Shown: piece by piece, positions 18,001-24,000 of the stretch | Layout: every line of letters starts with the position of its first letter | How positions within the stretch are numbered: the first letter of the stretch is position 1 | Source of the DNA: Escherichia coli | Lineage (GTDB): Bacteria; Pseudomonadota; Gammaproteobacteria; Enterobacterales; Enterobacteriaceae | DNA: 64,000 nt | Assembly: GCF_030013205.1 (NCBI RefSeq) | Contig: NZ_CP122648.1 | Reading direction: 5' to 3' (one strand) | Made by a program: the position numbers

Positions 18001-21000
18001 CGCGTCAATGTCGAGACAGAAGCCCAGCAGCACGAGTCTTCTCGCACCAATGGCGGCGCGCTGATCAGGACTATCAATATTCGCGTTGAGAACCCTAACC
18101 TGCATGATTTAGCCATTAAAGATGTACCGATTCTCAACGGCGACAAAATTATCTGCTCGCGTCTGAAACGCGAAGAAACCCTAAAAGTACCTTCGCCAGA
18201 TACCATTATCCAACTGGGCGATTTGCTGCATCTGGTGGGGCAGCCAGCGGATTTACATAATGCGCAACTGGTGATTGGTCAGGAGGTCGATACCTCGCTG
18301 TCCACGAAAGGCACTGATTTACGCGTCGAGCGTGTGGTGGTCACCAATGAAAACGTGCTCGGTAAACGTATTCGCGACCTGCACTTTAAAGAACGCTATG
18401 ACGTTGTTATCTCGCGCCTGAACCGTGCCGGGGTCGAACTGGTCGCCAGTGGCGATATCAGCCTGCAGTTCGGCGATATCCTCAACCTGGTGGGGCGTCC
18501 GTCCGCAATTGATGCCGTTGCCAATGTGCTGGGGAATGCGCAGCAAAAACTGCAACAGGTTCAGATGTTGCCAGTGTTTATTGGTATCGGGCTTGGCGTA
18601 TTGTTAGGTTCTATTCCCGTCTTTGTGCCAGGATTCCCGGCCGCGTTGAAACTAGGGCTGGCGGGCGGTCCGCTGATTATGGCGTTGATCCTCGGGCGTA
18701 TCGGCAGTATCGGCAAGCTGTACTGGTTTATGCCGCCAAGTGCCAACCTCGCGCTGCGGGAGCTGGGGATCGTGCTGTTCCTCTCGGTCGTTGGTCTGAA
18801 ATCTGGTGGGGATTTTGTGAATACCCTGGTCAATGGCGAAGGGCTAAGCTGGATTGGTTATGGTGCGCTGATCACCGCCGTTCCGCTGATTACTGTTGGC
18901 ATTCTGGCGCGGATGTTAGCCAAAATGAATTACCTGACCATGTGCGGGATGCTGGCTGGCTCCATGACCGATCCTCCGGCGCTGGCGTTTGCTAATAATC
19001 TTCATCCAACCAGCGGTGCGGCGGCGCTTTCTTACGCCACTGTCTATCCGTTGGTGATGTTCCTGCGCATTATCACCCCCCAATTACTGGCGGTGCTCTT
19101 CTGGAGTATCGGTTAACTCTTTTCCGGGTGGAGTCGCCGTAAATGGTACTCCACCTGGTATTCGTTGGCATTTCTGAACATTACTGAATAATTCAAAAAC
19201 TCCCCGCTCTCGCTATATGACAACGAGGTGATCCGCAGCAGTGGCGTGTGTTCCGCTACCTTCATTTGCCGCGCCAGCAGTCTATCGGCGAGCACTGGCG
19301 TCAGGCTTTCATAATTACCGCCAATCAGAATCCCGCACTCTTGTTCAATATATTCAAACTTCGACCCTTCCAGATGTTGCAGCGATAGGTTGCGGAACAG
19401 TTTTACCGGCATATAGCTGTCTTCCAGCATCAGCGGTTTCCCTTCCACAAAACGAACGCGACGGGAGAAGTAGATCTGCTCGTTGATTTGAATCCGTAGC
19501 TGGCTGGCAATGGCCGGAGGCGCAGGCATGATTTCAAAAATCAGCACCTGGCTGGTGACCGTTTTTCCCTGGCGTTTTAACACCTCCACCAGCCCGGTCA
19601 GGCTGGCGGTTTGATGCAATACATCTTTACGCACCAGGTAAGTACCGCTGCCGTGGCGGCGGACCACCAGCCCCCACGCCACCAGCAGGTCAATGGCTTT
19701 ACGGATGGTCATCCGCGATACCGCAAATTCTTCCGCCAGCTTTTTTTCACCGGGAAGAAGGCTGTTTAGCGTGAAATCCGCGGTGTTAAGTCGAATTCTT
19801 AACCGCTCCGCAATGCTTTTGTAGATCATCTCTAGATCTCTTTTTTGCCTGCAAGCCCGGGTAATGCGCCCACAAGTTCTGCTTAATCGATTGAAAAAAC
19901 ATCTTTTTTTTAAAGATGTGTTCGTTGCTGTGTACCAGTGCTCACAGATGTCTACTTTTTTGCGAAAACGTAGATCTCTACCGCCCAACGAAAAGCATGA
20001 AAGCGATCACGAATCCCACTGGGTCGTCATGTTCTGCCGATCGCATCTTCCTATCCTCGCTCCAGGCCTGCCGCATAACCAATCAGGCTTCCTACTTACA
20101 GAATTGAGAAAAGAGGATGTGGAAATGCTCAGTCAAATTCAACGCTTTGGCGGCGCGATGTTCACGCCAGTGCTGCTGTTTCCCTTCGCCGGGATTGTGG
20201 TGGGTCTTGCCATCTTGCTGCAAAACCCGATGTTTGTCGGGGAATCACTGACCGATCCGAACAGTTTGTTCGCGCAAATCGTACACATTATTGAAGAGGG
20301 CGGTTGGACGGTATTCCGTAATATGCCGCTGATTTTTGCTGTCGGTTTACCCATTGGCCTTGCGAAGCAAGCGCAGGGGCGTGCTTGTCTGGCGGTGATG
20401 GTGAGTTTCCTGACCTGGAACTATTTCATCAACGCGATGGGAATGACCTGGGGAAGCTACTTCGGCGTCGATTTCACTCAGGACGCGGTGGCAGGTAGCG
20501 GTCTGACAATGATGGCCGGGATTAAAACCCTCGATACCAGCATTATCGGCGCAATTATCATTTCCGGCATTGTGACGGCGCTGCATAATCGTCTGTTCGA
20601 TAAAAAACTGCCGGTGTTTCTCGGCATTTTCCAGGGGACATCTTATGTGGTGATTATCGCCTTCCTGGTGATGATCCCCTGCGCCTGGCTGACGTTGCTC
20701 GGCTGGCCAAAAGTACAAATGGGGATTGAATCTTTGCAAGCGTTCCTGCGTTCGGCGGGTGCGCTTGGGGTGTGGGTTTACACCTTCCTCGAACGTATTC
20801 TGATCCCAACCGGTTTACACCACTTCATCTACGGACCGTTTATCTTTGGTCCGGCAGCTGTTGAAGGCGGCATTCAGATGTACTGGGCGCAGCATCTGCA
20901 AGAGTTCAGTTTGAGCGCCGAGCCGCTGAAATCGTTGTTCCCGGAAGGCGGTTTTGCCCTGCACGGTAACTCAAAAATCTTTGGTGCCGTGGGCATTTCT

Positions 21001-24000
21001 TTAGCGATGTACTTCACTGCCGCACCGGAAAATCGGGTAAAAGTGGCGGGCTTGCTGATCCCCGCAACCTTAACCGCCATGCTGGTGGGAATTACCGAAC
21101 CGCTGGAATTTACCTTCCTGTTCATTTCACCGTTGCTGTTTGCGGTACACGCCGTGCTGGCGGCCTCAATGTCGACCGTGATGTACCTCTTTGGTGTGGT
21201 GGGCAACATGGGCGGTGGTTTGATTGACCAGGTTTTACCGCAAAACTGGATCCCGATGTTCAGCAACCACGCGGATATGATGCTGACCCAAATCGCCATT
21301 GGGTTGTGCTTTACCCTGCTGTACTTCGTGGTTTTCCGCACCCTGATTCTGCAATTCAACATGTGCACGCCGGGACGTGAAGATGCGGAAGTGAAACTCT
21401 ACTCAAAAGCCGAATACAAAGCCTCGCGAGGCCAAACCACCGCGGCAGAGCCAAAAAAAGAGCTGGATCAGGCTGCCGGTATCCTGCAAGCCCTGGGCGG
21501 GGTCGGCAATATCTCCAGCATTAACAATTGCGCGACGCGTTTACGTATTGCACTGCATGACATGTCACAAACGCTGGATGACGAAGTCTTTAAAAAGCTG
21601 GGAGCGCACGGCGTCTTCCGTAGTGGCGATGCCATTCAGGTGATCATTGGTCTGCATGTATCCCAGCTGCGTGAACAGCTCGATAGCTTAATTAATTCTC
21701 ATCAATCAGCAGAAAATGTTGCCATTACGGAGGCAGTATAATGACCAAATTCTCAGTGGTTGTCGCAGGCGGTGGAAGCACCTTTACACCAGGCATCGTG
21801 TTGATGCTCCTGGCGAATCAGGACCGTTTCCCGCTTCGTGCACTGAAATTTTATGATAACGATGGCGCGCGGCAGGAAGTCATTGCTGAAGCCTGTAAAG
21901 TCATCCTTAAAGAGAAAGCGCCGGACATTGCGTTTAGTTACACCACCGATCCTGAAGTGGCGTTCAGCGACGTTGATTTTGTCATGGCGCACATCCGCGT
22001 CGGCAAATACCCGATGCGCGAACTGGATGAAAAAATCCCGCTGCGCCACGGCGTTGTTGGTCAGGAAACTTGCGGACCCGGCGGAATAGCGTACGGCATG
22101 CGTTCCATTGGCGGCGTCCTGGAACTGGTGGATTATATGGAAAAATATTCACCAAATGCCTGGATGCTCAACTACTCCAACCCGGCAGCCATTGTCGCAG
22201 AAGCCACGCGTCGTCTGCGCCCGAATGCGAAAATCCTCAACATCTGTGACATGCCAATCGGTATTGAAAGCCGGATGGCGAAAATTGTTGGGCTGCAAGA
22301 TCGCAAACAGATGCGCGTGCGCTACTACGGCCTGAACCACTTTGGCTGGTGGACATCAATTGAAGATTTGCAGGGCAACGACCTGATGCCCCAGCTGCGG
22401 CAATATGTCTCTAAGCACGGTTATGTTCCACCGCAGCAAGATACACATACTGAAGCGAGCTGGAACGACACCTATGCAAAAGCGCGGGATGTCCAGGCTC
22501 TGGACCCGGATACATTACCGAATACCTATCTGAAATATTATCTCTTCCCGGATTATGTCGTTCAGCATTCCAACCCTGAACATACCCGCGCGAATGAGGT
22601 GATGGAACATCGCGAGAAACAGGTTTTCGATGCTTGCCGCGCCATTACGGCGGCAGGAAATTCAGCGGCGGGCAAGCTGGAAATTGACGAACATGCGTCA
22701 TACATCGTCGATCTGGCGGCGGCAATTGCCTTCAACACTCAGGAGCGGATGTTGCTGATTGTGCCTAACAACGGGGCAATCCATAACTTTGATGATGAAG
22801 CGATGGTCGAGATCCCGTGTCTGGTCGGGCACAACGGACCAGAACCACTGGTGGTCGGCGATATCCCGCAGTTTCAGAAAGGGTTAATGAGTCAGCAAGT
22901 GGCGGTGGAAAAACTGGTCGTGGACGCCTGGGAACAGCGTTCATATCAGCATCTGTGGCAGGCGATTACTTTATCGAAAACGGTACCGAGCGCCTCAGTC
23001 GCCAAAGCTATTCTGGATGATTTGCTGGAGGCCAACAAAGCGTACTGGCCAGAGTTACGTTAATTGTGTGGACTGGCATCCGTTGGGTGCTGGTCCGTAT
23101 TCTTTAGCACGGCTGACGGCGCATAACCAAATTTATGTTTAAAGGCTTTGCTGAAATGAAAGGAGTCGAAGAAGTTGAGCGTATCAGCGACTTCGCCAAC
23201 CGAGTTCCCTTGTTGCTTTAATAGCGATAGCGCCAGATCCAGACGTGCATCGAGGTAATATTCTTTCGGCGTCTTGCCGGTATAGCGTAAAAACAGACGA
23301 CGCAACCAGGCTTCGCTACAGGGGATCGTGGCAGCCATATCAGCTACGCTCCAGCGTTGTTGCAGACTGGCATGTAAAGTGGCAATTAGTTTTTCAATTT
23401 GCCGCCGTTGTGGATCTTTTTTACCGTCTGCGTACATAAGACAAATCCACTGATAAATAATTTTCGTCAGAAAAGCGACTGCCAGATTATTTTTTATTTC
23501 TTCTGGTGAAGTAATTAACTCAGCAACTTCGGTGAGTTCCTGATTATAAATTTCGCCATTATAAATAACGCTTTGCTGACCGACGGGAATATCCATCATA
23601 CTGGTGGGGTAAATTCCATCCAGTACTGTTCCCAGACTAAACCTTCACAGTGATAAGAGTGAATATCCATTGGCTTTAAAAATATAATACAGTTGCCATG
23701 CAGAGTTATTTGTTCGCCATTCTTTAAAAGAATTTTCCCACATCCTTGTACGGTATACACCGCAACCCATGAGTTGGCGATAAGCGGTTTCTTCTTGTCC
23801 CGCGGCCAGATCACCCGGTAATGCTCGTCGGCGTAGGTATGCCAGAGCGAGATCAGAGAAATTCCGCTGGAGATCACATTTTCGTTAATCAATAAGGGAA
23901 TATTGTACGGAGTTTCGTTTTTTACATCTGAACTTTGCAATTTTCCATTCATTTTAATATCCCTCCGGCGAATTATGCTCACAACCTGAACTTAACAGAA

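Follow-up and report, generated by a model that had tools for sequence, protein, structure and literature searches.

The glv operon of Escherichia coli, a probable alpha-glucoside phosphotransferase system: an intact form and the unequal spread of its K-12 lesions

In a stretch of 64,000 nucleotides from an Escherichia coli genome (RefSeq assembly GCF_030013205.1, contig NZ_CP122648.1), which we shall call the window, the glv locus is likely to be an intact, ancestral enterobacterial alpha-glucoside module of the phosphotransferase system (PTS), of the agl/glv type, placed at its native site between yidE and yidL. That an intact operon exists is already known: both of its proteins are annotated in RefSeq, the K-12 pseudogene figures in the reference annotation, and the cryptic K-12 copies are mentioned in the literature (PMC5309279). 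What the present analysis adds is the exact nature of the K-12 lesions, their very different spread, and a catalogue of five allelic states. The set comprises three genes between positions 19113 and 23063, for which a listing of open reading frames (ORFs) and the RefSeq annotation agree:

19113-19829, minus strand: yidP, GntR/HutC regulator of 238 residues with a conserved MIYKS start (ORF list and RefSeq)
20125-21741, plus strand: EIICB permease gene, 538 residues (ORF list and RefSeq), which K-12 has in broken form as glvC plus glvB, aglA-type
21741-23063, plus strand: GH4 6-phospho-alpha-glucosidase gene, 440 residues, the unbroken form of K-12 glvG, glvA/aglB-type

The original prediction, made from the letters of the window, had read here a complete permease, a coupled hydrolase and a divergent regulator, with the reservation that internal stops might have been missed; none was found in any of the three genes. 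With megablast, the whole segment finds a 100% match, at the same coordinates, in NZ_CP062203.1 (E. coli K_EC180, from swine faeces, South Korea).

The permease displays two Pfam domains, PTS_EIIC (3.7e-71, residues 10-346) and PTS_EIIB (2e-12, residues 453-482), hence EIIC followed by EIIB on a single chain that lacks a IIA domain. Against TIGR02005, the model of the alpha-glucoside-specific PTS transporter subunit IIBC, it scores 959.2 bits for a cut-off of 607.3, the match spanning residues 2-523 and profile positions 1-524 of 524; it falls far under every cut-off of the glucose, maltose, N-acetylglucosamine and beta-glucoside PTS models. It is 80-81% identical to Enterobacter proteins named alpha-glucoside-specific IIBC, about 81% identical to its Klebsiella-like counterpart, and the solved PtsG EIICB structures can be aligned with it from end to end. 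Ten homologous proteins, 80-95% identical to it, were set in an alignment with the permease; they come from Escherichia albertii, Enterobacter, Phytobacter, Mangrovibacter and elsewhere. The histidine pair HH (232-233) and Cys469, within NNCATRLR, are invariant across the 11 sequences, and GITEPLEF (322-329) is kept in 10 of them, the eleventh having a 25-residue gap at this place. ORF, RefSeq, Pfam and the invariance of Cys469 thus concur on the complete chain of 538 residues, with its NCATRLR cysteine motif, that had been proposed. The role of the cysteine in EIIB domains of the glucose family is established knowledge, and the corresponding codon can be placed as follows:

21529-21531, plus strand: codon of Cys469, predicted IIB phosphorylation site in NNCATRLR, within the Pfam PTS_EIIB match

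The start of the protein, MLSQIQRFGG at 20125, is conserved across genera in all homologues, with AGAGGA 7 nucleotides upstream. A longer ORF of 625 codons, from 19864, was set aside as a mechanical extension, the conserved start being that at 20125. At 90% identity, the permease belongs to a cluster of 8,565 member sequences. Its RefSeq product name is 'PTS sugar transporter subunit IIB', despite its full 538 residues. The sole equivalog model that it passes above cut-off is NF007255, a model of 161 positions which covers residues 378-538, that is, the GlvB fragment of K-12. It appears, therefore, that a pseudogene fragment sets the product name of the intact permease in thousands of genomes, a name that under-describes the protein.

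The hydrolase matches Glyco_hydro_4 (1.5e-66, residues 6-184) and Glyco_hydro_4C (6.5e-56, residues 195-415) in Pfam; the Pfam matches of all three genes far exceed what chance would give. Over 439 residues the hydrolase shares 89.5% identity (917 bits) with the protein of PDB entry 6DUX, named '6-phospho-alpha-glucosidase', which we take to be the Klebsiella pneumoniae enzyme, and it shares 73% identity (750 bits) with GlvA of Bacillus subtilis (PDB 1U8X), the solved 6-phospho-beta-glucosidases scoring just 146-213 bits. The NAD+-binding motif GxGS is found as GGGS at residues 10-13, and CDMP, the active-site motif of GlvA-type enzymes, at 169-172. Cys169, Asp170, His200 and Tyr263 align with Cys171, Asp172, His202 and Tyr265 of GlvA, which reportedly act as Mn2+ ligands (Cys, His) and as catalytic acid/base (Asp, Tyr). 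Family, motifs and aligned residues support the view that the protein would be an NAD+/Mn2+-dependent 6-phospho-alpha-glucosidase. No NCBIfam model came above cut-off (NF011657, alpha-galactosidase, reached 179 for 486, and NF041089, AglA alpha-glucosidase, 69 for 650), and this does not count against membership of the GH4 subfamily, because there was no subfamily-specific model among the matches. At the junction of the two genes, the TAA of the permease (21739-21741) and the ATG of the hydrolase (21741-21743) share one A, in TAATG, and GGAGG lies at 21729-21733; this makes plausible the translational coupling that the original prediction had proposed for the full-length gene of 440 codons. 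Together, the TIGR02005 score of the permease and the identities of the hydrolase to 6DUX and 1U8X support, at the level of sequence, the assignment of the operon to alpha-glucosides.

What, then, happened in K-12? The original prediction held the locus to be disrupted there, with glvC split from glvB and glvG a pseudogene. The annotation of strain MG1655 (glvC, 368 residues; glvB, 161 residues; glvG, pseudogene; b3683, b3682 and b4556) and the proposed alignment of K-12 glvCBG, carried out base by base, agree with this: the K-12 genes are not equally intact, because they carry an amber codon and a deletion. Over the 3,951 bases compared, the window differs from MG1655 by 55 substitutions and one gap, with about 98.4% DNA identity outside the lesions, which are located as follows:

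21229-21231, plus strand: codon 369 of the permease gene, which reads CAG (Gln) in the window and is an amber TAG in K-12 (C21229T, Q369*), the end of K-12 glvC
22334-22841, plus strand: segment of 508 bp deleted in K-12 (MG1655 alignment), encoding residues about 199-367 of the GH4 protein
22334-22341, plus strand: left copy of an 8-bp direct repeat, GAACCACT, read from the sequence
22842-22849, plus strand: right copy of GAACCACT; the K-12 junction retains one copy

In K-12, glvC plus glvB occupy the same 1,617 bases, a frame of 538 codons, as the single permease gene of the window, and the amber codon is all that separates the one from the other; Gln369 is invariant among the 11 aligned homologues. 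The length of the deleted segment is not a multiple of three, so that the frame of K-12 glvG is shifted, and the equivalent of Tyr263 is gone. To judge from its borders, a deletion between copies of GAACCACT is the signature of slippage or of illegitimate recombination at short repeats.

A further difference between the window and K-12 lies in codon 238 of the permease (20836-20838), and it is common to non-K-12 strains. Ten homologues from other species or genera all have Pro238, which comes just past the GLHH motif; Gln238 is found in a common E. coli allele, WP_000952141.1, carried by K-12, W, W21, LC-1302-2020, 41EC2 and YA-1. We considered P238Q as a lesion specific to K-12 and rejected the idea, since the same allele is present in W, W21 and other strains. 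It is possible that it represents a functional polymorphism.

The two lesions have fared very differently in the species. When the 3,951-bp segment 19113-23063 served as a megablast query in a set of 5,426 complete genomes of E. coli, 4,384 of these gave a match of any kind, 4,265 of them with at least 80% coverage. The 508-bp segment is present in 1,652 genomes (30%); by subtraction, about 2,600 (48%) share the K-12 deletion, and the whole module is absent from about 1,040 (19%). The exact amber haplotype of K-12, sought with a 57-nucleotide K-12 probe centred on the amber codon, was met in only 348 genomes, and the four that we sampled (ER1709, ET12567, BM28 and MC4100) are all laboratory derivatives of K-12, while about 85% of the genomes bearing the locus are identical to the window over 64 nucleotides that include codon 369. 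All 59 sampled genomes with the full 508-bp segment have a feature annotated '6-phospho-alpha-glucosidase', and every deletion-bearing genome that we opened displays an 815-bp glvG remnant. The intact operon was found, for example, in O157:H7, O55:H7, O102:H6 and AH50. The amber split between glvC and glvB thus appears to be restricted to K-12 and its derivatives, the deletion in glvG is a polymorphism both old and widespread, and the intact operon is a common allele, by no means special to the strain of the window.

Five allelic states can be catalogued: intact; yidP broken; glvA deleted; glvA deleted with the amber codon; absent. The second is that of E. coli B ATCC 11303 (NZ_CP140008.1, 501-1138), where permease and hydrolase are of full length and yidP is frameshifted; the match falls 79 bp short of the query length. 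Should YidP be the repressor, the B lineage might express the operon constitutively. BL21(DE3), for its part, was seen only in the 57-nucleotide search around codon 369. As for the last state, strain A36 (NZ_CP028739.1, 7004-7094) shows, after yidE, about 60 nucleotides of the 3' end of yidP, about 40 nucleotides that find no match, then a yidL gene shorter by 27 nucleotides with an altered 3' end. This scar implies that absence of the module results from a derived deletion, of about 3.9 kb, and is not the primitive state. The listing of glvC among the functions absent from phylogroup B2 (Touchon et al. 2009, PMC2617782) fits such a derived loss.

The view that the intact form is the ancestral one comes from other genera. 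A Klebsiella-like metagenomic contig and two assemblies of Enterobacter hormaechei display the same succession of GntR regulator, EIICB (540 residues) and GH4 (440 residues), followed by yidL-yidK-yidJ, and the Klebsiella-like contig has ibpA-ibpB-yidE upstream of the module, as in E. coli. The GH4 proteins encoded there share 95-96% identity with 6DUX. The same genes amid the same neighbours mean that the module was inherited vertically and that its intact form came first. We also computed pairwise ratios of non-synonymous to synonymous divergence (dN/dS) for six E. coli alleles with intact genes, and obtained 0-0.046 for the permease, 0.04-0.09 for the hydrolase and 0-0.06 for yidP. The window strain, O157:H7, O102:H6 and AH50 share the very same permease, WP_000952127.1, with a synonymous divergence (dS) of 0.045-0.062 in the three pairs compared. 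Low dN/dS, together with a protein that stays identical despite this divergence, argues that unbroken copies of the genes have remained in use.

How does the module compare with known systems? That of K-12, glvC-glvB-glvG, is the same locus with the same genes, and the difference lies in the Q369 amber and the 508-bp deletion. The aglA/aglB system of K. pneumoniae also has an EIICB without a IIA domain, then a GH4 NAD+/Mn2+ phospho-alpha-glucosidase, and it agrees with the E. coli module in its divergent GntR regulator and in the genes on either side; the E. coli copy differs from it, however, at about 10-20% of residues, so that the substrate range may differ. The maltose PTS of B. subtilis, glvA(malA)-glvR-glvC(malP), resembles it by a GH4 enzyme with the same catalytic residues and an EIICB of the glucose family, and differs from it in gene order and in regulator: GlvR, an activator of the RpiR type, is encoded there between the two genes, whereas a GntR/HutC regulator is divergent here. 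PtsG and MalX of E. coli share with the permease an EIIC domain joined to EIIB, the two motifs with Cys and GITE and, as predicted for the permease, reliance on EIIA-Glc; yet the permease falls under the cut-offs of their equivalog models (247 for 647 with PtsG, 276 for 665 with the MalX type), and neither of them, unlike it, is paired with a GH4 hydrolase. Finally, the GH4 6-phospho-beta-glucosidases (ChbF/CelF, BglT) have both Pfam GH4 domains, and share with the family of the window enzyme the fold and the NAD+/Mn2+ redox-elimination chemistry, but they are distant (the 146-213 bits mentioned above) and act on the other anomer.

Some of these systems have been put to work in E. coli K-12. 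With aglA/aglB of K. pneumoniae, K-12 grew on isomaltose; with glvC/glvA of B. subtilis, it grew on isomaltose, panose, sugar alcohols and methyl-alpha-glucoside; crr was required in both cases (PMC5309279). The same work names the K-12 homologues 'cryptic or nonfunctional truncated proteins', and cites Thompson et al. 2001 and Pikis et al. 2006 for the K. pneumoniae system. By analogy, the native operon would operate as follows. An alpha-glucoside (methyl-alpha-glucoside, isomaltose, maltitol, or an isomer of sucrose such as isomaltulose, also named palatinose) would enter via EIIC, and the IIB domain, at Cys469, would phosphorylate O-6 of its glucosyl unit. The phosphoryl group would travel from phosphoenolpyruvate to EI, to HPr, then to EIIA-Glc (the crr product, Crr), a route which the permease, having no IIA domain of its own, would have to follow. 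The GH4 enzyme, with NAD+ and Mn2+, would then cleave the 6'-phospho-alpha-glucoside into glucose-6-phosphate and the aglycone. Growth on alpha-glucosides via the native operon would follow from this scheme, in which substrate range, dependence on Crr, regulation and expression in E. coli are all inferred.

Regulation would begin with YidP. The protein matches GntR (1.3e-20, residues 3-64, the winged helix) and UTRA (1.1e-30, residues 87-224) in Pfam and is named yidP in RefSeq, in line with the divergent GntR/HutC regulator that had been predicted; no NCBIfam equivalog came above cut-off for it. It is 76-77% identical to the regulators located at the same position in the Klebsiella-like contig and in Enterobacter, and we found nothing specific about its function in the searchable literature. 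Aligning the control region of E. coli with those of the Klebsiella-like contig and Enterobacter reveals four conserved islands amid diverged sequence, the fourth being the Shine-Dalgarno sequence. We list the region and its candidate elements:

19830-20124, no strand assigned: divergent control region, 295 bp between yidP and the EIICB gene
19833-19841, no strand assigned: box TAGATCTCT, related to the inverted repeat listed next and adjoining the yidP start
19950-19975, no strand assigned: inverted repeat GTCTAC-N14-GTAGAT, candidate YidP operator (three-genus alignment)
19996-20011, no strand assigned: putative CRP-like site CATGAAAGCGATCACG, with 3 mismatches to TGTGA-N6-TCACA
20052-20057, plus strand: putative -10-like hexamer TATCCT, TAT(C/T/G)CT in the three genera, no match to the consensus

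In the inverted repeat, the three genera have the same half-sites, GTCTA and TAGA(C/T), and the spacer varies. YidP probably represses at GTCTAC…GTAGAT until an inducer binds its UTRA domain. A search of the control region for short inverted repeats gave a single output, an A/T-rich palindrome at 19896-19922, which was dropped as an operator because it is not conserved in the other genera. A block of 26 nucleotides around CATGAAAGCGATCACG is nearly invariant in the three genera. A search of the window for the CRP consensus gave 218 matches for 218 expected, that is, chance level, and it is conservation across genera, and that only, which singles out this site. Its centre lies about 60 nucleotides upstream of the start point implied by TATCCT, a spacing that would be typical of class I CRP promoters. 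The conserved site suggests catabolite control.

The module ends tight on its neighbours, at both sides with convergent genes: the stops of yidE and yidP overlap by 4 bp, and so do those of the GH4 gene and yidL. These overlaps, at 19113-19116 and 23060-23063, leave no space for intergenic terminators. The gene that follows, yidL (AraC family, 23060-23952, minus strand, running towards the GH4 gene), is present in the window as a pseudogene, with a frameshift near 23610: a run of five C in K-12 has four here, the ORF is split into pieces of 128 and 179 residues, and RefSeq marks it 'frameshifted'. This loss of 1 bp could be a genuine mutation or an error in sequencing a homopolymer. In strain W21 (NZ_CP163122.1, 4948-5951), an IS200/IS605 element that carries a TnpB/InsQ gene and a tnpA pseudogene takes the place of most of yidL, directly 3' of an intact GH4 gene. 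Further away, an Rfam scan between 15.5 and 24.5 kb found nothing besides the known ROSE_2 RNA thermometer upstream of ibpA (16240-16312, plus strand, 100 bits for a gathering score of 65), which is already annotated.

Several facts weigh against a working alpha-glucoside module. The searchable literature yielded neither an experimental test of the operon as native to E. coli nor anything specific on the phenotypes of strains facing palatinose, turanose or maltitol. A scan for consensus sigma-70 promoters and terminators between 19700 and 20250 found none. In an imaging study, alpha-linked glucosyl-sorbitol tracers were taken up by K. pneumoniae and not by an E. coli strain that is not specified (PMC12728616). 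Decay, moreover, has recurred within E. coli: about 48% of genomes have glvA deleted, about 19% are without the module, yidP is frameshifted in E. coli B, and K-12 has its amber codon. This argues that many niches can do without the module. Empty promoter scan, failed tracer and several independent states of decay are what one would expect if the genes were intact and the operon cryptic, as bgl, asc and chb are: silent, or too weak without an activating mutation, and drifting to loss. The literature calling the K-12 copies cryptic or non-functional goes in the same direction (PMC5309279). We hold this situation to be unlikely, if still worth keeping in mind. The dN/dS values, at most 0.09 in all three genes, and a permease identical across distant lineages speak for continued use rather than neutral drift; blocks of the promoter region are conserved in three genera; and failure of a consensus scan is a weak argument, since a good -35 element is usually missing from promoters that depend on CRP.

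Two further possibilities fare much worse. Older annotation of K-12 would make of the locus a beta-glucoside (arbutin-type) PTS with a 6-phospho-beta-glucosidase, and the legacy label 'PTS system arbutin-like IIC component' in JGI records, as well as the 'arbutin specific PTS permease' of Touchon et al. 2009 (PMC2617782), perpetuate this view. But the IIABC/IIBC models of that type match the short IIB domain alone, with 40-49 bits for cut-offs above 600, the 6-phospho-beta-glucosidases reach 146-213 bits where the alpha enzymes reach 750-917, and the active site has the CDMP motif of GlvA. By these comparisons the beta-glucoside view is effectively refuted, we grant it hardly any credence, and the 'arbutin / 6-phospho-beta-glucosidase' labels on glv genes are to be taken as wrong for this family. 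It might also be that intactness is an artefact of assembly or sequencing of a single genome, all the more so as the loss of 1 bp in the C5 run of yidL, next door, could be a homopolymer error. Full-length genes in 1,652 complete genomes, the 8,565-member cluster of the permease and the presence of the exact same permease protein in unrelated strains refute it, leaving this idea with practically no chance of being right.

If, as we think likely, the intact locus is an ancestral alpha-glucoside module, what is to be made of the many strains that lost the hydrolase? The seven non-K-12 genomes with the glvA deletion that we sampled (W, LC-1302-2020, 41EC2, 10153, YA-1, 98201 and d1-58) all have an uninterrupted permease of 538 residues and an intact yidP, and in one of them the permease protein is identical to that of the window. 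Synonymous and non-synonymous polymorphic codons number 20 and 4 in glvCB, 9 and 4 in the glvG remnant, counts that are too few to separate selection from a young deletion. This retention of full-length permease and YidP brings up the speculation, to which we lend rather little weight, that the permease has a role independent of the hydrolase, as a back-up sensor or transporter of glucose or alpha-glucosides, or as a sink modulating EIIA-Glc signalling, the intact operon being then a niche trait that varies from strain to strain and is directed at sucrose isomers, isomaltose and maltitol in the diet.

For those who model or engineer metabolism, the lesson is that predictions derived from K-12 should not be carried over to other strains at the glv locus. 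In about 30% of the E. coli sequenced, among them O157:H7 and the B/BL21 lineage, the alpha-glucoside PTS is unbroken, and these strains may be able to use isomaltose, isomaltulose, maltitol or methyl-alpha-glucoside. Industrial work has placed foreign glvAC or aglAB genes into K-12 for consumption of isomaltose and panose (PMC5309279); the native E. coli allele could be tried in place of these imported genes.

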